Assembly: GCA_005881435.1 (NCBI GenBank)
Contig: VBHP01000028.1
Coordinates: 71,003 to 135,002, forward strand
Direction: 5' to 3'
Source of the DNA: Chloroflexota bacterium
Lineage (GTDB): Bacteria > Chloroflexota > Limnocylindria > P2-11E > CF-107
Length of the DNA: 64,000 nt
Shown here: piece after piece, positions 314 through 25,774 of the stretch
Layout: every line of letters starts with the position of its first letter
Numbering within the stretch: position 1 is the stretch's first letter
Made by a program: the position numbers and the translations under genes
Notes under the pieces: model-generated
Database searches by the model: none
What the model saw: only the letters and a program-made list of their open reading frames with translations
What the model was told of the DNA's origin: nothing

Positions 314-572
314 AGCTCCGCACCTTCATGAGCACGGGCCTCATTGTCGCGCGCGACGCGTCGTTCAGCGATCTTCCGGCGGTACGTAGCGGGCGATCAG
401 CGCTTGAGCGATCAGCGGATCCACCGCCGGCGGACGAAGTATCGCCTTCACGATCACGCGAGGGGTGGCGCGATCGCTCTGCCTCTCAAAATTGAGATCG
501 CGGCGCTCCTCCCGCTCCACGCCTGCTCGCCGAGGCAAGAGGCATGCCATACACGGGGCTGGTCCGAGAGCT

Positions 573-594
573 ATTGAACTAAGCAAAGTTCAAT
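573..594. promoter_or_regulatory. Palindromic operator-like site ATTGAACT-N6-AGTTCAAT
   Basis: Perfect 8-bp AT-rich inverted repeat just upstream of a -10-like TAGGCT (620-625) and an XRE gene. Confidence 0.55.
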
Positions 595-635
595 TCCTGC
601 GCCTGCTTGCCCGCCGAGCTAGGCTTGCCTCCTCG

Positions 636-893
636 ATGCCGCGCTCTCGACGTACCGCAAAACGCCGCAGCCCCAGTGTCGACAACGACACGCGGAAGCG
701 CATCGGCCAGCACATCCGCGGGCTTCGCGAAGAACGGCGTATGACCCAGGCGAGCGTCGCCGATCCAGCGTTTACCGCGGCATTCATCAGCATGGTCGAG
801 AGCGGCCGCGCATTGCCCTCGATGAAGAGCCTGCTGCACATCGCGCGGCGTCTCCGCGTTCCGATCAGGCAGACGCTGCCCCCCGACCTTTAG
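636..893 (+). CDS. Stand-alone XRE-family helix-turn-helix protein (85 aa)
   Basis: IGQHIRGLREERRMTQASVA...AFISMVESGRALPSMKSLLHIARRL; start taken at ATG636. Confidence 0.85.
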   Translation: MPRSRRTAKRRSPSVDNDTRKRIGQHIRGLREERRMTQASVADPAFTAAFISMVESGRALPSMKSLLHIARRLRVPIRQTLPPDL

Positions 894-1707: not shown

Positions 1708-1749
1708 GCACTGCCCGATCCAGCGGACGTGGCCTGTAGGCTCTTCGAG

Positions 1750-2907
1750 ATGACGGACGCACCGAGACCGCTGCTGATCCACTCCAACTCGTACGACGAT
1801 CCGGCGATGCTGCATGCCTCCGGCTTTCTCGCGACCGATCCATTCACGTATCTCGAGACGAACGGGCACCGCGTCATCCTGACCAGCGCGCTGGAAGCCG
1901 GACGGGCGCGCAAGCAGTCCCGCGCGACGGCGATACGTGAGATGGACGAATTCGGGATCCAGGCGCTGTTGCGGGAGACCAGATCCTGGGACGAGGCCTA
2001 TGCCGCCGCACTGGACCGGTTCCTCGCCGAATACGGCGTGCGTGACGCGCTCGTGCCGCGCGAGTTCCCGCTGTATCTGGCCGAGCTGTTGCGGAAGCGC
2101 GGCGTGAAACTCGAGGTCGCGCCAAAGCTGGGCGAGCAGCGCCGTCGAAAGACCGCGGCCGAGATCGCCGCGATCGAAGAGACCCAGCGCGCGACTGAGG
2201 CGGGGTTCGACGAGGCGTTGCGCATGCTGCGCGACGCGGACGTCGCCGGCGACCGATCACTGGTCCTCGACGGAAAGCCGCTGACGGCGGAGCGCGTCCT
2301 GGCCGAGATCGAGGTCACCATGCTGGAGCGTGGTTGCGTCGCCGACGACACCATCGCCGCCGGAGGTCCGCACGCGGCCGACCCGCACCAGGTCGGGACC
2401 GGTCCCTATCGCGCCAACGAAGCGATCGTAATCGACATCTATCCGCAGTCACGCCGCAGTCGTTTCTTCGCCGACATGACGCGTACGGTCTGCCGCGGTG
2501 AGCCGCCCGACGAGATCGTTCGTATGTACGACATCACCCTGCGCGCACAGCACGAGGGCATCGCGATGGTGCGGCCCGGCGTGACCGGTAAGGAGATCCA
2601 CGAGCGCATCGAGGATCTGTATTTCGACGCCGGCTACGGGACCACGCGAGAGGGTCAGCGCCGCCCCGGTGTCCCGTCGTTCATCCACGGGCTCGGCCAC
2701 GGTGTCGGGCTCGCGATCCACGAGGCGCCGTCGATCGGGCGCAGCGGCGTGCAGCCACTCGAGCCGGGCGACGTCATCACCATCGAGCCCGGTCTCTATC
2801 TCGAGGGCCTCGGCGGCGTGCGAATCGAGGACATGCTCGTCGTCACCGAGACCGGCGCGCGCAATCTCACGCGAGCGGCAAAGGTGCTTCGGCTCGACTC
2901 TGGCTAG
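1750..2907 (+). CDS. Xaa-Pro aminopeptidase (M24)
   Basis: Metal-ligand motifs DIYP...ADMTRT, HGLGHGVGL.IHE, TIEPGLY, GVRIED. Confidence 0.95.
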   Translation: MTDAPRPLLIHSNSYDDPAMLHASGFLATDPFTYLETNGHRVILTSALEAGRARKQSRATAIREMDEFGIQALLRETRSWDEAYAAALDRFLAEYGVRDALVPREFPLYLAELLRKRGVKLEVAPKLGEQRRRKTAAEIAAIEETQRATEAGFDEALRMLRDADVAGDRSLVLDGKPLTAERVLAEIEVTMLERGCVADDTIAAGGPHAADPHQVGTGPYRANEAIVIDIYPQSRRSRFFADMTRTVCRGEPPDEIVRMYDITLRAQHEGIAMVRPGVTGKEIHERIEDLYFDAGYGTTREGQRRPGVPSFIHGLGHGVGLAIHEAPSIGRSGVQPLEPGDVITIEPGLYLEGLGGVRIEDMLVVTETGARNLTRAAKVLRLDSG

Positions 2908-4244
2908 TTGTGCGGCTGGGTACGCAGCCAGGCCACGGCCGCGTCGCGCACCGTGTCCGTCGGCGCATCCGGCGCACGGGTCACGACCTCGTCCGGCACG
3001 ACGCCTTTACCGGATAGGTCATCGCGGGTCACGGCGGACTGGATCTTGGCGTACGTATACAGCAGCAGCCCTCCGTCCGGCAGCTCACGCGGGAGCGCGA
3101 TGCTGATGCAGCCGGCGGTGCCGGCACCAAAGACCCGTCCGGCGCCGTGCTCCTGGATGGCGGAGGCGATGATCTCGGCCCCCGAAGCCGTGTACTGGTC
3201 GACGAGCACGGCCAGCGGTTTCTGCCGGGGATAGAACGCCTTCGGGTTCACCGGCTTTGGCACAGCCTGACCATCGCGATCGACCTCGTAGAGCACGTTG
3301 CCGCTCTTGATGAAGGTGCTCGCAATCTGCTCCGCCGGATCGAGTAACCCACCGGGATCGCCGCGCAGGTCGAGGATCCATCCGACGGCACCTTCGCGAT
3401 CCAATCGCGAGAGTGCTGCGGTCAGATCGCCCGGGATGTTGGCGGTGATGTTCTGGATGTTCACGTAGCCGTATTGCGAATCCACGACTTCCTCGACGAT
3501 GTCCGGTGCGATCAGCGAGGCGCGCGTGATGCTGAGGTCCAGGTCGCTCGCACCTCGAGTGATGACGAGCTTCACCGCGGTGCCCTCGGGGCCCTTGATC
3601 AGGTTGGCGACCTCTTCGGCGGTCAAGCCGGAGACGTCCTTCCCGTCCACGCTCTTGATCCGGTCGCCGGTCTTGACGCCGGCCTTTTGCGCCGGGCTGT
3701 CCGGGAACACCTGCGTGATCTCCGGCAGCGTCGCCGTGTTCGGCTGCGGCTGCTGGATCCGCGCTCCGATGCCGCTGTAGCGCTGGTTCGAGGGCTGGTT
3801 GAAGGTCCTCGCGCGATCGGGATCCAGGTAGTAGGTGTGGCACTCGTGGGTCGATTTCGCCATGCCAGTCACTGCGGCGCGCTCTAGCTCGGTTTTCGCC
3901 GCGCCCGGCGATTGCTGCTGCGCCTTGTCCAGATAGGCGGCGAAGGCGCGGAGGTCATCGTCGGTGTTACCGGTGAACGCGGGCGTGTCGCCCGGAACCG
4001 TCAGGTTCTGGGCCTGCAAATAGGCAGCAACGTCGCTCACGGCCCCGTCGAGCAGTGTCTTTGACGACGGCTTATTGACCTGATGTTCCACCAGCACGTG
4101 GAGCGCCTGCTCCACGGTCGCATAGGTCGTCGTGCTCGCGGGCGCGCTTTCACTGGGGTTGGATTGAAAGGGGAGCGTGATCGTGCAGCCGGACAGAACA
4201 AACAGCGCGGCGATCAGCAGACTGACGATTCGGCGCGAGGTCAC
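2904..4244 (-). CDS. S41-family PDZ protease, predicted lipoprotein
   Basis: LSGC lipobox, YSGIGA PDZ region, LDLRGDPGG, TASGAE; TACACT 7 nt before GTG4244. Confidence 0.9.
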   Translation of the reverse strand: MTSRRIVSLLIAALFVLSGCTITLPFQSNPSESAPASTTTYATVEQALHVLVEHQVNKPSSKTLLDGAVSDVAAYLQAQNLTVPGDTPAFTGNTDDDLRAFAAYLDKAQQQSPGAAKTELERAAVTGMAKSTHECHTYYLDPDRARTFNQPSNQRYSGIGARIQQPQPNTATLPEITQVFPDSPAQKAGVKTGDRIKSVDGKDVSGLTAEEVANLIKGPEGTAVKLVITRGASDLDLSITRASLIAPDIVEEVVDSQYGYVNIQNITANIPGDLTAALSRLDREGAVGWILDLRGDPGGLLDPAEQIASTFIKSGNVLYEVDRDGQAVPKPVNPKAFYPRQKPLAVLVDQYTASGAEIIASAIQEHGAGRVFGAGTAGCISIALPRELPDGGLLLYTYAKIQSAVTRDDLSGKGVVPDEVVTRAPDAPTDTVRDAAVAWLRTQPHN

Positions 4245-4275
4245 GGGTTCGAGTGTATCTGCCGGACCCGCGAAG

Positions 4276-4857
4276 CTAGGCGACTTCCTCCGCCAGCAGT
4301 TTGCGCAAACGTCCAAGCGCGCGGAACTGCAGCGCGCGGACGGCACCTTCGTTCTTGCCGAGGACCTTCGCGACTTCCTGTGACGAATAGTTCTCCATGA
4401 AACGGAGCAGCAGAACTTCTTGCTGATCGCTGGTGAGCTTCGTCATCGCGCGACGCAGCGCGTCGGCGCGATCGCGCGCCTCGACATGCTCGTGCGCCGT
4501 CGGCGATTGATCCGCGACACCGAATGCATCCTCGAGGTCGACGGTCGGCCGCGCGCGACGCATGCGATCGGTGACGGCGTTGCGCGCGATCGTGTACAGC
4601 CAGGCCAGAAACGATTTGCCTTGCCAGCGGTAGCGTTTGATGTTCGCGAACGCGCGTGTGAACACCTCGCTTGTCAGGTCCTCAGCGTCAGAGGCGTCGC
4701 GCACGCGGTAGAGGAGGTAGCGGTAGACACGATCGACGTACTCGTCGTACAGCTCAGCGAACGCTTCGCGGTCGCCGCCGCGCGCCCTGGTGATCACGTC
4801 GGGCGCTTCGTCCGCAGCGGGCTGCGGGATCGTTATCGAAATCTGTGCGATCGTCAC
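4276..4857 (-). CDS. ECF sigma-70 factor
   Basis: AFAELYDEY..RVYRY, AEDLTSEVF, WLYTIARN, region 4 LGKNEGAVRALQFRAL; GAGGGGGA before GTG4857. Confidence 0.92.
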   Translation of the reverse strand: MTIAQISITIPQPAADEAPDVITRARGGDREAFAELYDEYVDRVYRYLLYRVRDASDAEDLTSEVFTRAFANIKRYRWQGKSFLAWLYTIARNAVTDRMRRARPTVDLEDAFGVADQSPTAHEHVEARDRADALRRAMTKLTSDQQEVLLLRFMENYSSQEVAKVLGKNEGAVRALQFRALGRLRKLLAEEVA

Positions 4858-7737: not shown

Positions 7738-10518
7738 GTGGATATCCAGCAGCTGCGGTCGTGGATCTTCGAGCTCTACGAGCCCTTTCCCGAAGAGCGG
7801 ACGTACGCGATCCTGACCGGACACGACGGGATCCTGATCGACCTGCCGCCGTTCGATCGGCGCGTCGCGCTGCAGATCCTGGGCGTAATGACGCCGCGTC
7901 TGGTCTTCTTCACGCACGTGCACCGCACCACGGACATCGACCGTTGGCGTGAAGCGCTCCCCGACACGCGATTCGCGCTACACGAGGCGGACCGATCGGG
8001 CGTGAGAGGCGAGATCGTGCTGGCCAAGGACGGCGATCTGCTGTGGCGCGCTCCCGAGACGCGGGTGCTGCATATCGGCACGCGGACGCCGGGGGAGTCG
8101 ATGGTCATCACCAAGGTCCCCGGGGGCGTTCTCTTCGCCGGCGACGCGCTGGTGGTCACGGCGAGTGGCGGCATTGCGCTTCCCGAGGAGCGCTATGGCG
8201 CGGACGAGGACATCCGCGCCGGTCTGGAGAAGCTCCGCGCGGTCGAGTTCTCGGCGATGCTCTCCGCACATGGCCGGCCGGTGTGGAACGCCGCTAAGGA
8301 GCGCTATCAGCAACTGCTGAACGAGCTGCCACGTCCACACAAGCGTTTCGGACATCTGCTCGACGCACCCTGGGATCGCGACTATTTGCGGGTGCGCACG
8401 CAAATGACGCACAACCCGATCGTCCCGCAGGCCGAGACCATCGCAGAGGCCGCCGGACATGGACCGTCGACACTCGTCCCAGCCTGGGAGCATCGGCCCG
8501 CGCGCGCCGTGAGCTGGCCTCAGGCGCCCGTCGCGGCGCAGCCCGGCGCCGCGGGTGGCGACGGGAAGAAGTGGTCGCTGTCCAAGGAGGTACCGCGATC
8601 GCTTCCGCCGCAGCAGCGCTCGGCGGTGCAGAGCGTGCCGTTGGAGTTGCTGGAAGCGCCGGTCGCGTTCCGCCGCTTGAGCGCCGCTGACATCGCCGCG
8701 GTCCCGCAGGTCGACTGGGTTTACCGCTCGTTCGACCTGTCGCCGGACGGCGGTGAGGTCGTCTTTGCCTGGGATAAGACCGGCGCGTACGAGGTGTACC
8801 GGGCGCCCGTCGCGAGCGACGCGATCTATCAGTTGACAGACGGCGGGACGCGCTCGCGTTCGCTGCAGCCGAGGATCTCGCCGGACGGCAGGTGGATCGC
8901 CTTCCTCCGTGATCGCGATGGCGATGAACGTTTCGACATCTACCTCGTTGACCGGAGCGCGCGTGGCGAACGTCGCCTGACGGACCATCCGGCGACGCGC
9001 GGTGAGCTGATCTGGTCGCCGGACGGACGTGCGCTGGCGTCGATCTCCGATGAGGACGGTGGCCTCGCGCTCCACGTCATCGCTGTCGTGAGCGGCACGC
9101 ATCGCATCGTCGCCCGGAACCTCCGTGTCGTCGAGAACCTCGAGCACGCGCCGTCGTGGTCGGCTGACGGGCGCTTCATCGTCTATCACTCCGCCGATGC
9201 CGACGCGAATGTCGATCTTTACGTCGCGCCGGCGGACGGCTCGTTGCCGCCGTGGCGGCTCGAGACGCGCCCCGAGGCGGGCCAGTCGCGCCAGGGGCGT
9301 TTCAGCGCCGACGGCCGCGCCCTCGCCTTCTCCACCGACGTTCGCGGCCGGTGGGAGATCGCGGTGCTTCCACTCCGCGATGGCAGGGCCGATGGCAGTA
9401 CCCGCTACCTGCGGGACGGACACTTCGACGAGACCGATCCGCTGTGGGACGCCGATCCACGCCGCTTGCTGTACCGGCGCAACGCCGATGCCTTGGTCAG
9501 CGTGCGGCGGGCGTTCCTGGTGTCGAACGACGACGAGCCAGCGCTGGACGTACCCGGCGTGCACTTCGCCGCGAAGGTCGCGCCGGACGGGTCGCTCGTC
9601 TACCACTGGAGCGGCGCGCGCGAGCCGGCGGATGTTTTCGTTAGAGGCGCCGAGGACATCCTGCCGCGTCGTGTCACGCGTTCGCTTCCCGCGGGCATCC
9701 CGTCCGGCCTGTTCGTCGAGCCCCGCCACGTGCGGTATCCGAGTCTCGACGGCGTCGAGATCCCGGCGTTGCTGTATCTGCCGCACCGCGAGGCCGTCGA
9801 CGGGGAGCGGGAGCATCCACCCGCGGTCGTCTTCGCGCACGGCGGTCCGACGTCGCAGCATTTCGCTCAGTACGACGATTGGATCCAGTGGTTCGCGAAT
9901 CAGGGCTACGTGGTGCTCGCTCCGAACGCGCGCGGTTCGACCGGCTATGGTCGCGGCTTCCGCGAAGCGAATCGCGGCGACATCGGCGGCAAGGATGTCG
10001 ACGACATCGTGGCCGGGGCGACGTGGCTGGCGAGCGAAGGTGTGGCCGACGCGGAGCGCGTCGCCGTGTTCGGCGTGTCCTACGGTGGTTATCTCACGCT
10101 CATGACGCTGGCGCGCGCGCCGGAGCGGTTCGCCGCCGGTTGCGACGTCGTCGGTCCGACCTCGCTCGGACCGTTCCTCGGAGCGACGCGTCCCGACATC
10201 GCGCTCGCCGTCGAGCTGTACGTTCGCGGCCTGAACGAGACCGAACGTTCGGAGCGATCGCCGATCGATCTCGTCGACCAGATCAAAGCGCCGGTGCTGA
10301 TCCTGCACGGCAAGAAGGATCCGCGCGTGCCGGTCGCTGAGGCAGAACGACTGGTGGCGAAGCTTCGCGAGCGCGGCAAGGCGTTCTCGTACCACGCCTA
10401 CGACAGCGGCCACCAGCTGATCCTTCGCGAGCAGCGCCAGGATGCGCTGGAACGCACGATCGAGTTCTTCAACGAGCATGTCCGCGACCGCGTCGCGGCG
10501 CGGGTCGGGACCGCTTAG
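7738..10518 (+). CDS. MBL-fold / PD40 beta-propeller / S9 peptidase fusion (926 aa)
   Basis: THVH and LFAGD, then repeated SPDG/SADG blades, then HGGP, GVSYGG, D(PRVP) and (G)H triad. Confidence 0.9.
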   Translation: MDIQQLRSWIFELYEPFPEERTYAILTGHDGILIDLPPFDRRVALQILGVMTPRLVFFTHVHRTTDIDRWREALPDTRFALHEADRSGVRGEIVLAKDGDLLWRAPETRVLHIGTRTPGESMVITKVPGGVLFAGDALVVTASGGIALPEERYGADEDIRAGLEKLRAVEFSAMLSAHGRPVWNAAKERYQQLLNELPRPHKRFGHLLDAPWDRDYLRVRTQMTHNPIVPQAETIAEAAGHGPSTLVPAWEHRPARAVSWPQAPVAAQPGAAGGDGKKWSLSKEVPRSLPPQQRSAVQSVPLELLEAPVAFRRLSAADIAAVPQVDWVYRSFDLSPDGGEVVFAWDKTGAYEVYRAPVASDAIYQLTDGGTRSRSLQPRISPDGRWIAFLRDRDGDERFDIYLVDRSARGERRLTDHPATRGELIWSPDGRALASISDEDGGLALHVIAVVSGTHRIVARNLRVVENLEHAPSWSADGRFIVYHSADADANVDLYVAPADGSLPPWRLETRPEAGQSRQGRFSADGRALAFSTDVRGRWEIAVLPLRDGRADGSTRYLRDGHFDETDPLWDADPRRLLYRRNADALVSVRRAFLVSNDDEPALDVPGVHFAAKVAPDGSLVYHWSGAREPADVFVRGAEDILPRRVTRSLPAGIPSGLFVEPRHVRYPSLDGVEIPALLYLPHREAVDGEREHPPAVVFAHGGPTSQHFAQYDDWIQWFANQGYVVLAPNARGSTGYGRGFREANRGDIGGKDVDDIVAGATWLASEGVADAERVAVFGVSYGGYLTLMTLARAPERFAAGCDVVGPTSLGPFLGATRPDIALAVELYVRGLNETERSERSPIDLVDQIKAPVLILHGKKDPRVPVAEAERLVAKLRERGKAFSYHAYDSGHQLILREQRQDALERTIEFFNEHVRDRVAARVGTA

Positions 10519-12482: not shown

Positions 12483-15400
12483 TTAGACGCGCAGCGACGC
12501 CGCCAGCGCCTCGGCGCCGATCCGCTCGGCCATCGCTCGCGCGCGGCGGAGCAGCGGCTCGACATCCTCTTTCGCGTCACGAGCGCGCATGAGTGCCAGG
12601 TCGTACAGGCCCAGCGCCTCTTCGAACGCGAGTCCAAGCTTGCCGTACTCCGTGACCGCGCGCTCCAGGCCGGCGGCATCGCGGTCACGGATCGCGACCG
12701 CGTGCATCAGCAGCGCCTGGCCACGGGCGTGCCCGCTGGCGGTGACGGCATCGTTGGCCATCTCGTACAGATGGTCATCGCGCTCGCCCCAGCGCGACAT
12801 CGCCAGCACCACCAGCGGGAGGAACAGCACGCGACGCAGGGCGTGGCGGATCCAGCGCTGGTCCGGCTCGGTGGGCAGCTCGCGCAGGTCGGCGAGATAT
12901 TGCTCGCCGTTGCGCAGGCTGTAGAAGGCCGCCAGCACGTGCGTCGCCGCGACCGCCACGGCCGGGGGCTCGAGCCGCATGCCGTGATCCCACAGCTCCT
13001 GCTCGACCGGATCGCTCATCGCCGCGGCCGCCGCCACCGCGACCGAGAGCGCGTCGCCCCCGCCCTTTCGCGGCGGCTCGGCCAGAAGGACTCTTCCGAT
13101 CCCGAGCGCGCCTTCGAAGTCCGACGCCAGGAGCCGCGCCTGCGCCTCCTCGCCGATGGCCATGATCCGCAGCGCGTCCTTTCCCGTTGCGCGAGCGAGC
13201 TCGCTGGCTTCACTCGCGTGCGCGATCGCGTCCGACGGCGAGGCCACCACGAGCTCGCATTGCGAGATCATCGTCAGGGCGTCGATCAGCTCGTCGCTGT
13301 CGCGAAGAGTCCGCGTCAACGGCACGCGTCGTTGATGCGTCCGCAAGGCGTCGGCGAACCGTCCGAGCTCGCGTTCGGCATACCCGACAGCGTCGAGGCA
13401 GAGCGACACCTCACGCAGCGCGCCGAGCGATTCGGCGATGGACAGCGCCTCGCGTGCCGTGGCCAGAGCGGACTCCCAATCCTCACGGGTGACCTCGGCC
13501 CGGCGGCGCACCGCGAACGCGCGCGCCGCCAGGAGCAGCGCGCGCTCCCGCGTCGGGTCCGGACCGCACAGGGCCAGGCCCTTCTCGATGAAGACCTCGA
13601 GATCGGGAAGCATGCCGCCCCAGCGCGTCGACGTCTCCGCGATCAAGCCGTACAGCTCGCGGACGCGCTCGCCCGCGGGATCGATCCGCTCGGCGATCGC
13701 CAGCGCCCGCTGGTACGCGATGATCGCGGCATCGAGCTCGCCGCGATAGCGCTGCACCAGTCCCACGAGCATCAGCGCCCGCAGCGCATCTTCCTCGCGA
13801 GCCTCGCGCTCGAAGAGCGACGCCGCCTGCTCGGCGTGGCGCAGCGCCTCGCCGTGCGCGTGGTTGTCGAGCGCGACGGTCGCCGCGCGCTCGGCGTACT
13901 CCGCTGCGCGGCCGGGCACTTCGCCGAGCGCGTAGTGGTGCGCCAGTGTCGGATACAGGTCGGTGAGGTCCTTGGCGTAGACCTGCTCGATGGCTTCCGC
14001 CACGCGGCGGTGCATGTCGGTGCGACGGCGCACGAGCAGCGTCTGGTACGCGACCTCCTGCGTCACGGCGTGCCGGAAGCGGTAACGACCGATCCGGCCC
14101 TGCGCCGGCCCGGCGACGACGACGAGCTCCGCGTCGACGAGCTGATCCACGGCGTCGGCAACCTCCTGCCCGGCGGCGGCGACGAGCACGCGGTATCCGA
14201 AGCGCGGTCCGATGACGGCGGCGTACTGGATGCACTCCCGCGCCAGCGGCGGCAGGCGATCGATGCGCGACGCGACGAGGGCGTGAAGGGTCGCGGGCAC
14301 GTCGAGCTGCTCCGGTTCGCGCACCAGGCGCCAGCCGTCGGACTCGGGCACGATCATCCCGGCATCGATCAACGATCGCAGCGTCTCTTCGATGAAGAAC
14401 GGATTCCCGCCGGACCGCTCGACGATGACATCGCGCAGCGCTTCGGGTACCCACTGCAGGACGGACTCGACGATGCGCGAGGCCTCCTCTGGCGAGAGCG
14501 GGTCGAGGACCAGCGAGGTGAAGTTCGCACGCGGCGCGGTTTTGCTCAGGGCATCCGGCAGGCCGCGATACGTCAGCAGCACCAGCAGTCGCGCGCGGAC
14601 GGGGTGCGCGAGCATGAACCCAAGTAGCTCGATCGTCGCCGAGTCGGCGTTGTGCAGATCCTCGAGTACGAGGACGACCGGTCGCGCCCGCGTCAGCGCC
14701 GCGTACGTGTCGCGGATCGCGGAATAGCGCCGGCGTTTCACCTCCTCGACGTCGCCCGATTCCGGCGGCGCCGGCTTCAGCCCGAGGAAGACGGCAAGCT
14801 CGTGGTGCACGATCTGGTGGTTCGGCGGCTCGAGCACGTCGACCCATTGATCCAGCCGTTCCTTGGCGTTGGCGGCGGTGCGGTCGAAGCCGAACGCTTC
14901 GAAGAGCGTCTCGATGAAACCGGCGTACGAACGAACGCCGACGCCGGAGTACGTCCACCGCAGCACCAGCGGCGTCTCGCCGCCCTCCTCTCGGGCGGTC
15001 TCCAGCAGACCCAGGAACTCGTTGACCAGGCGGCTCTTCCCGATGCCGGGCTCGCCGGAGACAGCGACGAACTCGTTGCGTCCGACCATCGCCGACTGAT
15101 ACGCCAGATCGAGACGCGAGAGCTCCATCCAGCGACCGACGAGCGGCGTGTTCAGCTGGACGCTCGGCCGCGCCACCGGGTATTCGCCGGTGAGGGCGTA
15201 GGCCAGGACCGGCTGCTCCTTTCCCTTTACCTGCACCGGTCCGATCTCGCGGAAGGAGAAGCGCTGGTTGGTCAGCCGGAAGGTCGCCTGCGTCACCAGG
15301 ATCTCGCCCGGCTGCGCCATCTGCTGCAGCCGCGCCGCGACGTTGACGGTGTCGCCGACGACGCCGTACTCCGTCGGCACCCGCACGTTGCCGGCGACGA

Positions 15401-15767
15401 CGATGCCGGTGTGGACGCCGATACGCAGCGACAAGTCCCTGCCGTAGCGCGAGCGGACGACCGCGGCGTGCTGCGCGAAGGCCTTCTGCATCGCCGTTGC
15501 GGTGCGGAGAGCGCGCTCGGGGTCGTCCTCGTGCGCGATCGGCGCGCCGAACATGACGAAGATGGCGTCGCCGATGAACTTCTCGACCGTGCCCTCATAC
15601 CGTTCGGCCTCACGCACCAGCGACTGGAAGATGTCGCTCATCAGCTCCTGCAGCTCTTCGGGATCGAGCGTCTCGGCGAGCGAGGTGAAGCCGACGATGT
15701 CGGCGAAGAGCACCGTGACGAGGCGTCGTTCCTGTACGACCTCCTGGACCGCCCTGGTGGCGTTCAT
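12483..15767 (-). CDS. Class III adenylate/guanylate cyclase + AAA ATPase + TPR
   Basis: FADIVGFT, EKFIGDA, GDTVNVAARL, GEPGIGKS, LEDLH, TPR-like C-terminus. Confidence 0.93.
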   Translation of the reverse strand: MNATRAVQEVVQERRLVTVLFADIVGFTSLAETLDPEELQELMSDIFQSLVREAERYEGTVEKFIGDAIFVMFGAPIAHEDDPERALRTATAMQKAFAQHAAVVRSRYGRDLSLRIGVHTGIVVAGNVRVPTEYGVVGDTVNVAARLQQMAQPGEILVTQATFRLTNQRFSFREIGPVQVKGKEQPVLAYALTGEYPVARPSVQLNTPLVGRWMELSRLDLAYQSAMVGRNEFVAVSGEPGIGKSRLVNEFLGLLETAREEGGETPLVLRWTYSGVGVRSYAGFIETLFEAFGFDRTAANAKERLDQWVDVLEPPNHQIVHHELAVFLGLKPAPPESGDVEEVKRRRYSAIRDTYAALTRARPVVLVLEDLHNADSATIELLGFMLAHPVRARLLVLLTYRGLPDALSKTAPRANFTSLVLDPLSPEEASRIVESVLQWVPEALRDVIVERSGGNPFFIEETLRSLIDAGMIVPESDGWRLVREPEQLDVPATLHALVASRIDRLPPLARECIQYAAVIGPRFGYRVLVAAAGQEVADAVDQLVDAELVVVAGPAQGRIGRYRFRHAVTQEVAYQTLLVRRRTDMHRRVAEAIEQVYAKDLTDLYPTLAHHYALGEVPGRAAEYAERAATVALDNHAHGEALRHAEQAASLFEREAREEDALRALMLVGLVQRYRGELDAAIIAYQRALAIAERIDPAGERVRELYGLIAETSTRWGGMLPDLEVFIEKGLALCGPDPTRERALLLAARAFAVRRRAEVTREDWESALATAREALSIAESLGALREVSLCLDAVGYAERELGRFADALRTHQRRVPLTRTLRDSDELIDALTMISQCELVVASPSDAIAHASEASELARATGKDALRIMAIGEEAQARLLASDFEGALGIGRVLLAEPPRKGGGDALSVAVAAAAAMSDPVEQELWDHGMRLEPPAVAVAATHVLAAFYSLRNGEQYLADLRELPTEPDQRWIRHALRRVLFLPLVVLAMSRWGERDDHLYEMANDAVTASGHARGQALLMHAVAIRDRDAAGLERAVTEYGKLGLAFEEALGLYDLALMRARDAKEDVEPLLRRARAMAERIGAEALAASLRV

Positions 15768-21003: not shown

Positions 21004-21351
21004 GTGAACGAGCCGGTCCCTGCGGCTCTGTCGCTGGCGCGTCGCTGGTTCAAAGCGCTCGACGACCGCGATCCGTCGACCGCGGCGGCGCTCGTCAGCG
21101 ACGATTGCCGCATCACCAATCCGACCGGCAACGAGGACCTGGTCGGTCCGGCGGGGGTGCGCGAGCTGCTGCGCATGGCGCCGCCGACGCTGCGTCGATC
21201 CGTGCGCGCCGAGCGCGTCGAGGGCGACACCGCAATCGTCACCGGGCTGACCCGTGTGCCGGGAGCGTTCGCCAACTACACCACCTGGACGATCGAGACC
21301 AACGGCGACCGCATCACGCGCATCGGCTTCGCCTGGCGTTCGGCGAACTAG
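21004..21351 (+). CDS. SnoaL/NTF2-like protein
   Basis: RRWFKALDDRD...LVSDD...VG.AGVRE pattern; TAGGCT 6 nt before the GTG. Confidence 0.75.
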   Translation: MNEPVPAALSLARRWFKALDDRDPSTAAALVSDDCRITNPTGNEDLVGPAGVRELLRMAPPTLRRSVRAERVEGDTAIVTGLTRVPGAFANYTTWTIETNGDRITRIGFAWRSAN

Positions 21352-21605
21352 CTCTTTCCTAACTTCGCCAGCCGCTCGAGCACCTCGCGCTGCCGCGAGA
21401 GCACATGCGTGGTGACCTCGGCCAGCCAGTGGTCCAGGTCCGCGGTGAGCTCGACCGCTTCCGCAAGCGCGCTCTCCAGCTGTGATCTGTCTCTCTCGGC
21501 CTGCTCCAGCAGCACCCCCGTCTTCGCTTCGTAGTCCGTGACCTTCACGCCGAAGACCTTCAGCAATTTCCGCGTGGGGTCCACGGCGCGCCGTTCTTCT
21601 TCCAT
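21348..21605 (-). CDS. Hypothetical helical protein
   Basis: GGAGG RBS; GC3-rich codons. Confidence 0.65.
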   Translation of the reverse strand: MEEERRAVDPTRKLLKVFGVKVTDYEAKTGVLLEQAERDRSQLESALAEAVELTADLDHWLAEVTTHVLSRQREVLERLAKLGKS

Positions 21606-21621: not shown

Positions 21622-21987
21622 TCAGGACGTGGTGATGCCTCTGATCGCGAGCCCGGCGGCGAAGAGCATTACCAGCCCGAGCAGCAGCGATTGCTGCGCC
21701 GGCGGTCGATCACGTGAGTAGAGATAACCGGCAGGCAAAGCCGCCGCGAGCGCGAAACCATAAAGAATGTGCAACGGGTCGCGCGGACCAGTCCCGCCGA
21801 TCCACACCGCCAATCCGAAGACGCCCTGCGCGAGCGCGGTGATCCAGGCGATGACGAGCGCGCCGCGATAGCTGGGCGAGATGCCACTGCCACGTCGCCA
21901 GGCCACGAGTCCCCAGACGCCGATGAAAGCGAGATAGAGGACGAGAGCGCGCGCGAGGCCGGCGTGAAGATTGGTCAGCTCCGACAC
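21622..21987 (-). CDS. Hypothetical 4-TM membrane protein
   Basis: Four hydrophobic helices, LHILYG motif; TAGCAT 6 nt before the GTG. Confidence 0.75.
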   Translation of the reverse strand: MSELTNLHAGLARALVLYLAFIGVWGLVAWRRGSGISPSYRGALVIAWITALAQGVFGLAVWIGGTGPRDPLHILYGFALAAALPAGYLYSRDRPPAQQSLLLGLVMLFAAGLAIRGITTS

Positions 21988-22000
21988 GCGGCGATGCTAG

Positions 22001-22030
22001 GCCCCGCCCGCCGGGATCGACGGGCGGGGC
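22001..22030 (-). terminator. GC-rich hairpin after the repeat-peptide gene
   Basis: GCCCCGCCCG-N10-CGGGCGGGGC perfect stem 12 nt after the stop; no U-tract. Confidence 0.6.
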
Positions 22031-22042
22031 ACCAGCGTCGCT

Positions 22043-22165
22043 TTAGCGGCCGCCGCCCGGCGGAAGAACCGGGTCGGCGTATCGGCCGCCACCCGGCGGC
22101 AGGACCGGATCGCTCTTACCGCCACCGGGCGGCAGGACCGGGTCGAGGCGGAACATCGCGAACAT
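22043..22165 (-). CDS. 40-aa repeat peptide MFAMFRLDPVLPPGGGKSDPVLPPGGGRYADPVLPPGGGR (candidate signal/RiPP precursor)
   Basis: GGAGG upstream of the ATG; three DPVLPPGGG units differing only at synonymous positions; downstream hairpin. Confidence 0.88.
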   Translation of the reverse strand: MFAMFRLDPVLPPGGGKSDPVLPPGGGRYADPVLPPGGGR

Positions 22166-22288
22166 CTGGGCCTCCCCGGCAGGGCGCAAAATAAGCAAAA
22201 CTCAAACGCCCCACCTGCCGGGCATATTGGCACACGCCTGCAACCCTTAAAGAAGGACTCAAACTGAACTGTGCTTATACTCGGCGCC

Positions 22289-22648
22289 GTGGCGACTCGG
22301 GTCCTCGTGCTGTTCTGCGAGGAGTACGCCCGCGGGGCGTTTGTGTCCCAGGCCCTGGCCGGAGCGGGCTATGCGGTGAAATGGGTACGCGGCGTCGAGA
22401 CCGCACACCAGCTCGCCGAGCGCCAGCGCGTCGACGCCCTGGTCGCGGATGCACGCAGCGAAGAGCTGCTGGGGTGGCTCGTCGGCGGCTGGCGCCGACG
22501 GACTCCTGCTGCGCCCGTCGTCTTGCTCGCGCGGGCCGGTACCAGCGATTCAGCGCCACTTGCCGACGAGGTCGTATCGTCTCCCCTGACCGTGGATGCC
22601 ATACGGCGCTCAGTGGAGCGTGCGCTGTCGGAGAGCACGAGTGCCTAG
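22289..22648 (+). CDS. Atypical single-domain receiver (CheY-like) protein
   Basis: Receiver-like pattern (RVLVL..EE, DALVAD, PVVLL); the conserved Lys-Pro reads Ser-Pro; TATACT 7 nt before the GTG. Confidence 0.65.
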   Translation: MATRVLVLFCEEYARGAFVSQALAGAGYAVKWVRGVETAHQLAERQRVDALVADARSEELLGWLVGGWRRRTPAAPVVLLARAGTSDSAPLADEVVSSPLTVDAIRRSVERALSESTSA

Positions 22649-23918
22649 CGGCCTCAGGCGCGCGTCCACCGCGGCGAACAATTTCGGAGCTCGATTACGT
22701 GTCCTTCGCCGCGCCAAGGGGTTGCGGCAGCAGGACCTCGCCGGCGGCGAGTATTCCGCGGCCTACATCTCGATGCTCGAAAGCGGCAGGACCCGCGCGT
22801 CGATGAAGGCGCTCGAGCACATCTCGCGCAAGCTCGGGATCGGCGTGGCCGAGCTGCTGGGCGGTGTTCCACAGCCGAACCAGGCCGAAGCGCGTCTCGA
22901 GGTCGCGCGCACGCTCCTCGCCGCCGAAGAATCGGAGCGGGCGTTGCAGGTCCTGGCTGAGGTCCGCGACAAGGAGCTGACGCCGCGACAGCACGTGGCG
23001 CGTCTGCGGCTCGAGGGTCGCGCCCACCTGCAGCTGCGAAACGCCAAGGCCGCGATGCCGGTGCTCCAGCGTGCGCTGCTGCTGGCGCAGCAGTTGAACG
23101 ACAACGTCGAGGTTGCGCACGTGCGCAACCAGATCGGCCTGTGCTGCTACTACAACGCAGCGCATCGCGAGGCCGTGCAGCACCACCTGGCGTGTCTCGA
23201 GGCGATCCATCGTGGCGAGGTGCGCGACGCGGTCCTGGAGTTCCGCGTCCTATCGAACCTCGGCAACGAGCACGGCGCTCTGGGCGAGCTTCCCGCCGCG
23301 ATCGGCTACTACGAACGTGCGCTCGCTATGGCCAACGACGTCGTCGACCACGAGCGTCTGGCGGGGATCCATGCCGGGCTCGCGTTCGCTTACACCAAGC
23401 AGGAGGACTACGAGGGCGCGATCACCCACGCGCGCACGAGTTTCGAGCTCTACGAGCAGATCGGGGCCAAGAAGACGCTTCCCGAGATCATGAACAACCT
23501 CGCGTACCTCTACGGAAAGGTCGGCAATCGCACTCGCGCCGACGCGCTGCTGGTTCAGGCCATCGATGGCGCGCGGACCAATCGCAACCTGTACGCGTTG
23601 CCGCACCTGATCCTCAGCCGCGCCGAGCTGCACAAGACCACCGACCCGGAGCAGGCCCGCCGTTTTGGACGTGAAGCTCTCGCCGCGGCCGAGGCCGCCG
23701 AGCAGCGCGAGGCGATCCTTTCGGTGCGGCTGTTCTTGGCCGGGTTGGAGACCGATCCCACGACCGCGCGCGTCGCGTTCGATCAGTGCCTGTCGCTGGC
23801 GCGCCTCAGCGTCCCGGAGCGCGAGCGCCGCGTGCTCGAAGCGCACGCCGACTGGGAGCAGGCGCACGGCGACGTCCGCCGCGCGGCCAAGCTGTTAAAG
23901 GAAGCGCTGCACAAGTAA
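22641..23918 (+). CDS. XRE-HTH + TPR transcriptional regulator (RRNPP-like architecture)
   Basis: HTH FGARLRVLRRAKGLRQQDLA...YISMLESG followed by TPRs (SNLG..H..LG, MNNLAYLY); 8-nt overlap with the upstream gene. Confidence 0.9.
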   Translation: MPSGLRRASTAANNFGARLRVLRRAKGLRQQDLAGGEYSAAYISMLESGRTRASMKALEHISRKLGIGVAELLGGVPQPNQAEARLEVARTLLAAEESERALQVLAEVRDKELTPRQHVARLRLEGRAHLQLRNAKAAMPVLQRALLLAQQLNDNVEVAHVRNQIGLCCYYNAAHREAVQHHLACLEAIHRGEVRDAVLEFRVLSNLGNEHGALGELPAAIGYYERALAMANDVVDHERLAGIHAGLAFAYTKQEDYEGAITHARTSFELYEQIGAKKTLPEIMNNLAYLYGKVGNRTRADALLVQAIDGARTNRNLYALPHLILSRAELHKTTDPEQARRFGREALAAAEAAEQREAILSVRLFLAGLETDPTTARVAFDQCLSLARLSVPERERRVLEAHADWEQAHGDVRRAAKLLKEALHK

Positions 23919-24104: not shown

Positions 24105-25262
24105 CTACTCGACGAGCCGACCGCGCTGGAACACGAGCCACACTCGCCACAGCGCGGCGGGATCGGAGAGCGGATCGCCGTGCACGAGAAAGAGATCGGC
24201 GGCTCCACCTTGCCGGAGCGTGCCGGCGTCTTTTAGTCCGAGCACCTCGCCGCCTTCGAAGGTCGCGGCCGCGAGGGCCTCGTGCGGCTCGAGCCCGGCC
24301 TTCACCAGATGCTCGACTTCCCACGCCAGATGACCAGGGCGTACCGAGCCGCCACCGAAATCGCTGCCCGTGGCGATCCGCACGCCGGCCTTCTTCGCGG
24401 CGCGAACAGCGCCGTAGGCCTGCTCCAGCAGCTCCGCCGTTTTTGCCTGCGCCTCGGCGAACGCTCCGCCAACGGTGTCGCCGAAACCAATGAACGAGTC
24501 GAGGACGTTCAGCGTCGTCACCAGTGCAGTGCGGCCGCGCATCGACCGCGCGATCACGTCGTCGACGCCGAAACCGTGCTCGACGGAATCCACTCCCGCA
24601 TCGACCGCGACCTTCGCGCCCTTGCCCTGCGCGTGCGCGGTGACGCGCTTGCCGCGCGCGTGCACCGCCTCGACCGTCGGTCGCAGTTCGTCGGCGCTGA
24701 ACGTCACAGTCTCGCCCAGGCGGCCGGTATCGACGGCCAGCTTGACCAGGTCCGCTCCGGCGTCGAGTTCCGCGATCGCCGCCGCCCGCAGTTCCGCCGC
24801 CGAGTCGACGAAGACCGTAAACGGCGGGAACCGATCACGCCGCGCGATCCAGGTGCCGGCGGCGAGAATCGTCGGCAGACCCTCCCGTCCGGACAGCTCG
24901 TCGCGGATGCGGAGGTTCAGCCGATGGGGCGCGCCCACTTCCCGAGCGGTGAGGACACCCATACGCACGAGGGCACGCCCGGCGCGTGGCCCGCGCGCCA
25001 GCAGCTCTTCGGGCGGGTCGCCGAAGCGCGCGATCCAGTTCGCCCCGCCGGACCCGGTGAAGTGGGCGTGGCAATCGACGAGCGCGGGAACGAGCGTCGC
25101 GCCAGCCGCGTCGATGACCTCGGCGCCGGCGGCGTCAGGTTCGCCGTCGCGCGGGCCGAGATAGGCGACGCGATCGCCGCGCACCACGAGGGAGACATCG
25201 CGTTCGAGAGTGGGGGAGCGTCCGTCCGCGAGAGCCGCGCCGCGAATGTGGATCGCGGGCAC
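24105..25262 (-). CDS. Metal-dependent amidohydrolase
   Basis: PALVDCHAH, GADLVK, AHAQG, SVEHG, GSDFG. Confidence 0.9.
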   Translation of the reverse strand: MPAIHIRGAALADGRSPTLERDVSLVVRGDRVAYLGPRDGEPDAAGAEVIDAAGATLVPALVDCHAHFTGSGGANWIARFGDPPEELLARGPRAGRALVRMGVLTAREVGAPHRLNLRIRDELSGREGLPTILAAGTWIARRDRFPPFTVFVDSAAELRAAAIAELDAGADLVKLAVDTGRLGETVTFSADELRPTVEAVHARGKRVTAHAQGKGAKVAVDAGVDSVEHGFGVDDVIARSMRGRTALVTTLNVLDSFIGFGDTVGGAFAEAQAKTAELLEQAYGAVRAAKKAGVRIATGSDFGGGSVRPGHLAWEVEHLVKAGLEPHEALAAATFEGGEVLGLKDAGTLRQGGAADLFLVHGDPLSDPAALWRVWLVFQRGRLVE

Positions 25263-25774
25263 TACTCGACGCGAATGGTCTTGATGACGTCACCGATCTT
25301 GATGCCGGTGACGACATCCATGCCGCTTTCGACCTGACCGAAGTTGGTGTACTGACCGTTCAGCCAGGAAGCGTCCTTCTTCACCACGAACCACTGGTAG
25401 TCGTTGTTGATCTTGGGATCGTTGCCGCGAGCGATGCCGGCGGCGCCGACCTTGAACGGCAACTGGTTCATCTCGCTCGGCATCTTGCCGCCTCCCATCC
25501 CCGAGCCGAGCGGATCGCCGCCCTGCACGACCCAGTCTTCGACGCGGTGGAACTTGAGGCCGTCGTACTTGTGGTCGCGCGCCTTCTGCACGAAGTTCGC
25601 GACCGTGCTCGGAGCGGCGTCGGCTCGGAGCGTGATCGTGAACGAACCGCCCTTAGCCAGTTCGACGATCGCGCGCTTCGCCGTGCCCGTTGCCTGGGAG
25701 GGAGATGGTTGTTGCGCCACGGTGCACGACAGAATAAAGAAAAGGGCCCCGGCAAGCGCCGAGGCCCTTCTCAT
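25262..25774 (-). CDS. Cyclophilin-type peptidyl-prolyl isomerase, probable lipoprotein
   Basis: AP.TVANF, YDGLKFHRV, VQGGDP, YTNFGQV; ILSC lipobox-like. Confidence 0.92.
   Translation of the reverse strand: MRRASALAGALFFILSCTVAQQPSPSQATGTAKRAIVELAKGGSFTITLRADAAPSTVANFVQKARDHKYDGLKFHRVEDWVVQGGDPLGSGMGGGKMPSEMNQLPFKVGAAGIARGNDPKINNDYQWFVVKKDASWLNGQYTNFGQVESGMDVVTGIKIGDVIKTIRVE

Follow-up and report, generated by a model that had tools for sequence, protein, structure and literature searches.

A leaderless precursor of repeated peptide units beside an HTH-TPR regulator in Limnocylindria: a possible RRNPP-like system in Chloroflexota

Introduction

Peptide signalling via cytoplasmic receptors built of tetratricopeptide repeats (TPR) has been described as a trait of the Bacillota (Firmicutes) (PMC10075063). 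Tandemly repeated pheromones, in 1-4 copies, occur in the propeptides of RRNPPA systems (PMC11343458, PMC9765709), NprR switches between its receiver-domain target Spo0F and DNA on binding NprX (PMC5349214), and leaderless communication peptides (LCPs) exist as well (PMC10518010). Here we describe a locus from a soil-dwelling Chloroflexota bacterium of the class Limnocylindria (GenBank assembly GCA_005881435.1, contig VBHP01000028.1, positions 71,003 to 135,002 of the forward strand), in which a 40-codon gene encodes three copies of the unit DPVLPPGGG[K/R] and is divergent from the genes for a receiver-like protein and for a regulator with a helix-turn-helix (HTH) and a TPR domain. This stretch of 64,000 nucleotides, which has a G+C content of 62-72%, is referred to as the window, and coordinates are window positions. 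A preliminary description, made from the letters of the window, had proposed that the small product is either a multicopy signalling peptide of the HTH-TPR protein or a ribosomally synthesised and post-translationally modified peptide (RiPP).

The RRNPP(A) systems of Bacillota, Rap-Phr and especially NprR-NprX-Spo0F, which is the closest parallel, are similar to this locus in having an HTH-TPR receptor of ~425 aa and an adjacent small peptide gene. The target of NprR and Rap is Spo0F, which consists of a lone receiver domain (PMC5349214), and the receiver-like protein of this locus is translationally coupled to the regulator; the 1-4 pheromone copies of some RRNPP(A) propeptides have their counterpart in the 2-4 units found here. 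In contrast to these systems, the locus belongs to Chloroflexota (Limnocylindria), all of its relatives being Limnocylindria or Chloroflexota metagenome-assembled genomes (MAGs) or soil contigs; the precursor has no Sec or PptAB-type signal and practically no sequence outside its Pro/Gly-rich 10-mer units, the peptide gene is divergent from that of the receptor with the receiver-like gene in between, and the regulator has only generic HTH and TPR similarity to RRNPP(A) receptors. LCPs of streptococci and other Firmicutes (e.g. SIP-RopB; PMC10518010) likewise lack a secretion leader and are encoded beside a cytoplasmic HTH-TPR-type receptor, but an LCP is a single short peptide that is translated mature, whereas 2-4 tandem copies would need endoproteolysis, and the receptor family is a different one. 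The locus would work in the manner of an NprR-like RRNPP cassette whose pheromone is tandemly duplicated, but its membership of that family is not demonstrable, as the secretion signal is absent, the phylum differs and the receptor has no more than generic similarity.

Poly-pheromone precursors are also known from eukaryotes, in yeast alpha-factor and the Kex2-processed fungal RiPPs, and multi-core RiPP precursors occur likewise in bacteria. All of these share with the present gene the tandem identical units, basic cleavage sites, variable copy number and selected identity of the copies, but they carry a signal or leader and use the secretory pathway or dedicated enzymes, none of which is found here. 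What is new at this locus is the leaderless precursor consisting entirely of cores, the Pro/Gly-rich 10-mer unit, the receiver-like partner, and the occurrence in Chloroflexota; our literature searches found no description of RRNPP-type signalling in Chloroflexi or Limnocylindria.

Results

The peptide gene encodes three copies of one unit

The small gene lies on the minus strand of the window, and its product, MFAMFRLDPVLPPGGGKSDPVLPPGGGRYADPVLPPGGGR, consists of a short N-terminus followed by three units (Table 1; coordinates of all features are in Table 2). A GGAGG-N5-ATG start, a three-core product of 40 residues and a perfect hairpin behind the stop had been reported for it, and all are present in the sequence, the hairpin with one G.U pair. 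No U-tract was found behind the hairpin, which is a probable terminator of the peptide transcript. The three units of the window gene differ in nucleotide sequence at third codon positions only, as the preliminary description had stated. Tandem Repeats Finder does not detect the repeat, because the units differ too much in wobble positions and spacing. The gene had also been described as unannotated, which is right in that it has no name or family, but gene callers have called the exact 40-aa product on 16 metagenome contigs; at six of the loci described below (L082-L087) it is uncalled among the listed genes. None of five proteins of the locus passes a curated cut-off in NCBIfam or PADLOC.

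When the 40-mer was searched against 5.8 billion protein sequences a single match was obtained, to a 564-bp contig (L007) that is broken inside the repeat; the search is nearly empty because short, biased peptides cannot reach significance against a collection of this size. The L007 protein (P0001) reads MFAMFQLDPVLPPGGGKSDPVLPP and then continues into unrelated sequence, probably through an assembly break or chimera inside the repeat, and it shows that short-read assemblers can mis-join at the peptide gene.

No Sec signal and no PptAB-type (basic plus hydrophobic) signal was found in any of the precursors, in agreement with the earlier remark on the window gene. The N-terminus before unit 1 is only 3-8 residues long, with MAR (L081) as the shortest and MFAMFR and MSLLVAR as other examples, and there is no follower, as the last unit ends the precursor.

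Orthologous precursors keep their units identical as peptide

Orthologues were found using the neighbouring genes as anchors (exact-protein contig look-ups) and by scanning for a two-core DNA pattern. An equivalent ORF (open reading frame) is located at the identical position in seven additional lineages of the Chloroflexota class Limnocylindria, which are diverged from one another and come mostly from soil, with 2-4 units in each (Table 1); chance would not produce such a recurrence. The unit skeleton is D-P-x-[L/I]-P-P-G-G-x-[K/R] in all lineages and PPGG is invariant in every unit, the variants including DPVLPPGGG, DPALPPGGG, DPGIPPGGD, DPELPPGGS, DPVLPPGGT and DPGLPPGGS. Positions 3 and 9 vary between lineages (position 3 is V, A, G, E, C or S) and are constant within a precursor, except for Cys/Ser/Cys in L085; only two exceptions to identity of the units within a precursor were seen in all. 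The preliminary description had drawn attention to the Lys or Arg after each core in the window as a plausible protease site, and throughout the orthologues a Lys or Arg closes every unit with one exception, the protein itself ending in Arg. A Shine-Dalgarno (SD)-like GGAGG or GGGAGG is preserved 4-9 nt before the start in all orthologues, and the ATG and stop are conserved with it.

Table 1. Precursors of the window and of the seven further lineages, divided by unit (L-numbers denote loci)
Locus	Precursor	Units
Window	MFAMFR-LDPVLPPGGGK-SDPVLPPGGGR-YADPVLPPGGGR	3
L008/L080	MSIAFR-LDPVLPPGGGK-SDPVLPPGGGR-SADPVLPPGGGR	3
L082-84	MARSFR-SDPALPPGGGR-TDPALPPGGGR-SDPALPPGGGR	3
L085/86	MSRTSF-ADPCLPPGGGR-ADPSLPPGGGR-ADPCLPPGGGR	3
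L081	MAR-IDPVLPPGGTR-SDPVLPPGGTR-TDPVLPPGGTR	3
L010	MSLLVAR-TDPELPPGGSR-TDPELPPGGSR-ADPELPPGGSR	3
L009	MSFTLVAR-TDPGIPPGGDR-TDPGIPPGGDR	2
L087	MAFRITI-DPGLPPGGSR-TDPGLPPGGSA-SDPGLPPGGSR-TDPGLPPGGSR	4

Loci L009 and L010 are both from MAG GCA_030157145.1, which holds two versions of the whole locus with neighbouring genes 60-70% identical. As the housekeeping genes on the flanks are also present twice, a bin in which two related populations are mixed is a likelier explanation than two paralogous systems within a single genome.

When the units of each gene are compared with one another, 70 nucleotide columns are variable over all eight precursors; 55 of them are third positions, and 59 sit in codons whose amino acid is unchanged. 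Units within a gene also switch codon family, between TCN and AGY for Ser (TCC, AGC and TCG in one gene), CTN and TTG for Leu, and CGN and AGG for Arg. The units are thus diverged as DNA but identical as peptide, which rules out recent gene conversion as the source of their identity and points to selection on each unit. The earlier proposal that selection acts on the peptide is upheld; the DNA repeat is not its target. Units that are identical in each precursor and different between lineages are expected if each unit fits one co-evolving partner.

One frame on the opposite strand also repeats, giving RPPPGGRTGS three times, because the codons CCN-CCN-GGN-GGN are self-complementary. Since the two frames have their wobble positions in common, the third-position argument of the preliminary description holds for the sense frame but does not by itself pick the strand. 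We chose the sense strand because of its SD and ATG, the identity of units in the orthologues that is seen in the sense frame only, and the Ser, Leu and Arg codon-family switches. The antisense frame was rejected as the gene: it has no start in register, and its repeats are not identical in L009 and L010. These observations also bear on whether there is a gene at all, as the 33-36-bp repeats could be DNA or RNA elements (iterons or a structured RNA) in which the ORF is incidental. Each unit does contain a self-complementary CCGCC-N3-4-GGCGG, and this explanation would also account for the mirror-image antisense repeat and for an RNA that folds far better than its shuffles, but it is scarcely credible when the DNA of the units differs exactly at wobble positions with amino acids fixed, when Ser is encoded by both TCN and AGY in one precursor, when SD, ATG and stop are conserved in all lineages, and when the antisense repeats lose their identity in two of them. 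On sequence grounds, the peptide ORF is a real, translated gene with purifying selection on each unit.

Repeated identical cores with conserved basic flanks also resemble the multi-core precursors of cyanobactins and of Kex2-processed fungal RiPPs, and the cores could accordingly be modified by tailoring enzymes and then excised. We consider this very improbable. With only 3-8 residues, the leader would not suffice for leader-guided enzymes, and a follower is absent. The core lacks the Cys/Ser/Thr pattern that typifies such chemistry, and no radical-SAM, YcaO, lanthipeptide, P450, prenyltransferase or dedicated protease or transporter gene is present within ~10 kb in any lineage. The genes that are found there are of a housekeeping type (SnoaL-like, FolC, DUF2330, cupredoxin, cupin, amidohydrolase, cyclophilin, GNATs, and an adenylate-cyclase/AAA/TPR protein). 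The RiPP alternative of the preliminary description is therefore not supported.

The divergent operon encodes a receiver-like protein and an HTH-TPR regulator

The peptide gene is present in all seven distinct lineages (7/7) that have the receiver-like gene and readable DNA, and in 7/7 lineages readable there an ORF for a 30-50-aa peptide lies 105-150 bp from the divergent operon, its length falling within the 10-120 aa of the small ORFs that adjoin RRNPP(A) receptor genes. The two-core DNA pattern matches two loci in JGI metagenomes, both within the conserved peptide locus, and has no match in a viral contig collection. The receiver-like family forms only 15 clusters among the 5.8 billion proteins, and homologues of the neighbouring proteins come from MAGs named 'Chloroflexi bacterium' and 'Candidatus Limnocylindria' and from soil metagenomes. 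The peptide is found only in this locus, and together with a shared control region (see below) this upholds the proposed tie to the HTH-TPR regulator. The neighbourhood had been described simply as a divergent HTH-TPR gene; that gene is present, but the first divergent gene is that of the receiver-like protein, whose end is overlapped by the HTH-TPR gene.

The receiver-like protein is 119-125 aa long across lineages and matches Pfam Response_reg only below threshold (E 0.079). An AlphaFold model (14 homologues, pLDDT 68) superimposes on receiver domains with TM-scores of 0.70-0.77, Spo0F being among the matches. The phospho-acceptor Asp60 is invariant, the acidic DD pair is replaced by EE, and the position of the conserved Lys reads Ser-Pro. 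As judged from sequence and model together, this partner appears to be an atypical or pseudo-receiver.

In the regulator, an HTH_31 domain (residues 30-86 of the long ORF) is followed by TPR_12 and other TPR families, and its size and architecture fit the form of RRNPP(A) receptors (about 250-500 aa, TPR domain, usually an N-terminal HTH). Profile searches of PDB match the TPR part to LGN/Pins and kinesin light chain, which are binders of extended peptides, and the HTH to DdrO and ClgR; PlcR and ComR are matched weakly and by the HTH only (E 0.008-0.04). A single-sequence AF2 model, all-helical with a pLDDT of 75, was compared using Foldseek and matches TPR superhelices; LGN ranks first, and ranks 38-50 include RapI, a Rap-CSF complex and NprR, with TM-scores of about 0.4. 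These comparisons show a domain of the peptide-binding type and do not demonstrate membership of the RRNPPA family.

The peptide gene and the operon share a symmetric control region

Alignment of the control region from seven lineages reveals three invariant blocks, AGTATAAGCA, TGTGnCAnTAT and CTGAAnTTTGCTTAT, of which the first and third form a 15-nt inverted repeat, ATAAGCAAAnTTCAG. The distance from box to box is 73-74 bp, or about seven helical turns, in every lineage in which both boxes are matched (73 in the window), and among all 87 loci examined the ATAAGCAAAnTTCAG boxes occur only in peptide loci. In our reading, Box 1 overlaps a TATACT hexamer shortly before the probable GTG start of the receiver-like gene. 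A sigma-70 consensus scan of the control region gave no match, and our assignment of TGnCAATAT, TATACT and TAGCAT as promoter elements is an inference from the conserved blocks. The control region is thus symmetric and common to the peptide gene and the regulator operon, which is what co-regulation or feedback would lead one to expect.

A third and weaker copy of the box, CTAAGCAAAGTTCAA, is present near the left end of the window inside a palindrome, TTGAAC-N8-GTTCAA, upstream of a short XRE paralogue that has the HTH only. The recognition region of this paralogue (FISMVESGRALPSMKSLLHIA) resembles that of the HTH-TPR regulator (YISMLESGRTRASMKALEHIS).

Table 2. Coordinates of features in the window
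Feature	Position	Strand	Remarks
Small peptide gene	22043..22165	-	40 codons plus stop; ATG 22165-22163, TAA 22045-22043; 6-residue N-terminus MFAMFR, three DPVLPPGGG[K/R] units, 1-2 linker residues between units
Shine-Dalgarno GGGGAGG	22171..22177	-	GGAGG + 5 nt + ATG
Unit 1, DPVLPPGGGK	22115..22144	-	
Unit 2, DPVLPPGGGR	22082..22111	-	
Unit 3, DPVLPPGGGR	22046..22075	-	protein C-terminus
GC-rich hairpin	22001..22030	-	13 bp (one G.U), 4-nt loop, 12 nt past peptide stop; probable terminator
Antisense frame	22047..22247	+	RPPPGGRTGS three times
Box 2 of inverted repeat	22191..22205	+	ATAAGCAAAACTCAA on + strand; 25 nt upstream of peptide ATG
Central element TGTGCCAATAT	22224..22234	-	TGn + CA[A/G]TAT, extended -10-like; T-G-T-G-n-C-A-n-T-A-T invariant in 7 lineages
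Box 1 of inverted repeat	22264..22278	-	ATAAGCACAGTTCAG; + strand holds TATACT just upstream of receiver-like gene
Receiver-like single-domain protein	22271..22648	+	125 aa as called; first gene of divergent operon; true start probably GTG 22289
XRE-type HTH + TPR regulator	22641..23918	+	425 aa; start overlaps end of receiver-like gene by 8 nt
TAGCAT	21994..21999	-	-10-like TAnnnT hexamer 6 nt before membrane-gene GTG
Membrane protein	21622..21987	-	121 aa; GTG start; four hydrophobic segments (by eye); no Pfam family
Hydrophilic protein	21348..21605	-	85 aa; no family; kept downstream of membrane gene in peptide loci
XRE HTH-only paralogue	465..893	+	short ORF
Third, weaker box	579..593	+	CTAAGCAAAGTTCAA
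M24, S41 and S9 peptidase genes	1729..2907; 2904..4346; 7738..10518	+; -; +	12-20 kb from peptide gene
Cyclase/ATPase/TPR protein	12483..15767	-	1094 aa
Cyclophilin-type peptidyl-prolyl isomerase	25262..25774	-	~3 kb from peptide gene

The peptide gene appears to be a stand-alone unit

Downstream of the peptide gene, and on the same strand, every peptide locus has the membrane gene and a gene for a protein of 85-88 aa. Homologues of the membrane protein with at least ~58% identity share the locus with the peptide, and those with 50-56% identity (L011-L013) are found upstream of an aminotransferase and an SDR gene with neither peptide nor regulator nearby, so the membrane gene was rejected as a marker of the peptide. 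In every locus, also in L011-L013 where the peptide is missing, the SD-less start of the membrane gene is preceded at 6-10 nt by a TAnnnT hexamer, and the gene appears to have its own promoter of the leaderless type. The hairpin after the peptide stop is present in all lineages with the stem preserved and the sequence different, and the hexamer follows directly behind it. The peptide ORF appears to be a monocistronic, stand-alone unit, because it has its own SD and its own hairpin, and the membrane gene retains its TAnnnT where the peptide is absent.

TAnnnT elements 6-10 nt before SD-less GTG or ATG starts (21994-21999 on the minus strand and 22275-22281 on the plus strand of the window; L008-L013, L081-L087) precede the membrane gene in all loci and probably the receiver-like gene, and suggest that leaderless mRNAs are common in this organism. 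The strong SD of the peptide gene contrasts with these starts.

The RNA of the peptide ORF is unusually stable compared to shuffled sequences (z = -5.2), with unit 1 pairing with unit 2, which follows from the self-complementary codons of PPGG (CCN-CCN-GGN-GGN). PPG motifs, of which the product has three, are strong EF-P (elongation factor P)-dependent stalling sites. The ORF could therefore be a regulatory leader, in which the position of the ribosome, dependent on EF-P or on Pro/Gly-tRNA supply, sets the hairpin and hence read-through into the membrane gene; mgtP, a leader ORF with proline codons, acts in this manner in the mgtCBR leader of Salmonella. The invariance of PPGG in every unit, the strong hairpin close behind the stop and the structured mRNA with mutually pairing units are all consistent with this. 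We nevertheless judge it improbable, as the constraint is not confined to regulatory codons: all ten unit positions are kept identical within a precursor, and those irrelevant to stalling (positions 3 and 9, D1 and the terminal K/R) are held so by selection. Moreover, the membrane gene keeps its own -10-like element in front of its SD-less start whether the peptide gene is there or not, no U-tract follows the hairpin, an ORF of this kind is missing at the distant membrane-gene homologues, and the RNA pairing is an automatic consequence of the codons used.

A further alternative is that the peptide is unrelated to the regulator, working for example with the membrane and 85-aa proteins or as some other secreted or surface peptide, with the adjacency to the regulator being inherited synteny. 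The presence of the two downstream genes on the same strand in every peptide locus fits this, and in so narrow a clade synteny is weak evidence of function. Against it, the membrane gene has a promoter-like element of its own and occurs elsewhere without the peptide, the inverted-repeat boxes tie the promoter region of the peptide to that of the regulator operon, and sister regulators also own an adjacent peptide (see below); on this balance we think such an unconnected function unlikely.

Sister regulators are paired with Sec-type peptides

A scan of a genome collection with the HTH-TPR alignment returned 66 loci, nearly all from Limnocylindria, and all of them paralogues with 32-48% identity (nearly all 32-37%); the sister family is 33% identical to the window regulator over its full length. 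No orthologue of the regulator is among these 66 loci, and the receiver-like gene, the membrane gene, a PPGG ORF and the ATAAGCAAAnTTCAG boxes are absent from them, whereas the window system has both the receiver-like gene and the boxes. A generic repeat screen of the small ORFs in the sister loci was swamped by Arg-rich off-frame ORFs of the high-GC DNA, and the sister peptides came to light when screening was confined to the DNA in front of the regulator gene. In 60 of the 66 loci an ORF of ~40 aa with a Sec-type signal peptide and an A-x-A site is present upstream of the regulator on the same strand, ~150-300 bp before the HTH-TPR gene (L014-L079; e.g. 2676-2813 + in L050 and 2692-2817 + in L039). 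Its C-terminus is hypervariable and has the form C-[D/P]-P-x3-6-G-x-C, as in MSIRRALQIVTFAFALVFAMSVPAASLSAYACDPTDTGGLC; there are 54 different tails, of which 43 start with CDP and 37 contain GG. BlaI/BlaR-like genes and CysM, CysO (ThiS-like) and JAMM genes flank the sister loci.

The distance between tails is correlated with that between TPR domains when the adjacent CysM is controlled for (partial Mantel r 0.36, p 0.0005, 38 complete loci), and the reverse partial correlation is negative. These loci have a TPR receptor and an adjacent propeptide with a Sec signal, which corresponds to the 'strict' RRNPP signature (PMC10075063), and from their sequences they look like an undescribed RRNPP-style peptide-receptor pair in Chloroflexota. 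Given this pairing, it is plausible that these regulators sense peptides as a family trait.

The two systems share the regulator family and an adjacent hypervariable peptide whose variable part opens with Asp-Pro and has Gly(-Gly) close to its end, but the sister peptide has a classical signal peptide, is present in a single copy with two Cys (likely a disulfide ring), and is encoded on the same strand upstream of the regulator. The Asp-Pro ... Gly-Gly pattern common to both peptide types hints at a common binding mode, although this is suggestive only. The preliminary description had expected similar peptides beside homologous regulators, and these are seen in the orthologues and, in a different Sec-type form, beside 60 of the 66 paralogous regulators.

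Other genes of the window

Encoded 12-20 kb from the peptide gene are three peptidases, which may be housekeeping enzymes: one of family M24, a C-terminal processing peptidase of family S41 that has a PDZ domain, and a 926-aa protein of the S9 prolyl-oligopeptidase family that has PD40 repeats. The large protein encoded between these and the peptide locus combines an adenylate/guanylate cyclase, an AAA_16 ATPase and TPRs, and a homologue also adjoins the peptide-less L011 locus. The cyclophilin-type peptidyl-prolyl isomerase on the other side has an N-terminal hydrophobic, lipoprotein-like signal, and its synteny is kept in close lineages.

Discussion

We propose, with a rough probability of 0.45, that the peptide is a leaderless, multi-copy ligand of the HTH-TPR regulator that is processed and acts in an RRNPP/NprR-like manner. 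The pro-peptide would be cleaved after the conserved Lys or Arg to give several identical 10-12-mers. An X-Pro bond blocks aminopeptidase trimming, and the N-terminal Asp-Pro would guard the released peptides in this way. The peptides would then bind in the TPR groove of the divergently encoded XRE-HTH/TPR regulator, which is presumably co-translated with its receiver-like partner. The predicted targets of the regulator are the inverted 15-nt boxes, 73 bp from each other, on either side of the shared control region; by binding there it would link the amount of peptide to transcription of both the peptide gene and the regulator operon. By analogy with NprR, which is switched between Spo0F and DNA, the peptide may switch the regulator between the receiver-like partner and the two boxes. 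Several copies would raise the yield per translation event, as has been discussed for duplicated Phr pheromones (PMC11343458). For export without a signal the leaderless communication peptides are a precedent (PMC10518010), and action inside the cell is equally possible. Proteolytic release, exit and re-entry, TPR binding and the direction of regulation are all steps that we infer.

Several observations count against this proposal. In sequence and in fold, the TPR domain resembles RRNPPA receptors no more than TPR domains do in general, its best matches being eukaryotic LGN. The precursor carries no secretion signal, and the conserved neighbourhood has no gene for an exporter, for a processing protease or for an importer of the Opp type. 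All peptide loci belong to one narrow clade, and the conserved adjacency may in part reflect recent common ancestry; likewise, with seven lineages in two clades, covariation of peptide and receptor is not separable from phylogeny. In the sister family, part of the partial Mantel correlation could be due to the TPR domain evolving faster than CysM and simply following divergence better. Finally, the membrane gene accompanies the peptide in every locus, and the linkage of the peptide may be to that gene.

The absence of a signal peptide and of an exporter, together with a leader as short as MAR, would also fit a protein of 30-50 residues that is neither cleaved nor exported and acts as an intracellular partner, its 2-4 repeats each docking one TPR domain so as to cluster or sequester regulators. 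Its role would be that of an anti-regulator or scaffold, comparable with the action of SinI on SinR, a repressor of the XRE type. TPR domains of the LGN type bind extended linear motifs, the two operator-like boxes at a fixed 73 bp could be bridged by a multimer, and all of the linkage evidence for a processed ligand fits this explanation equally. Nonetheless, we regard it as rather unlikely. The copy number ranges from 2 to 4 among close lineages, which is odd for a fixed stoichiometry, the basic residue that ends nearly every unit and the C-terminus resembles a signal for cleavage or trimming, and the sister peptide, with its Sec signal, is clearly of the secreted type.

Returning to the processed-ligand proposal and taking both families together, Limnocylindria might use RRNPP-type peptide signalling in two forms, one with a Sec-secreted and probably disulfide-cyclised C-DP...G-x-C peptide, and the other with a leaderless polyprotein of 2-4 DPxLPPGGx[K/R] units, an HTH-TPR regulator and a pseudo-receiver. 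This broader suggestion is a tentative one, and at present we find it doubtful.

If the proposal is correct, a counterpart of these systems in an abundant and essentially uncultured class of soil and freshwater Chloroflexota would widen the range of peptide communication via TPR receptors. The gene would also offer a clean model of a precursor made solely of repeated signal units, and it bears on a question raised for Rap-Phr, namely the reason for the duplication of pheromones and for the identity of their copies (PMC11343458). It is a compact system, as it comprises a single 40-codon gene, a regulator with its receiver-like partner, and two boxes of 15 nt. Should the peptide instead act inside the cell, it would control an XRE-TPR factor as a multivalent small protein, which would be a new type of regulator.

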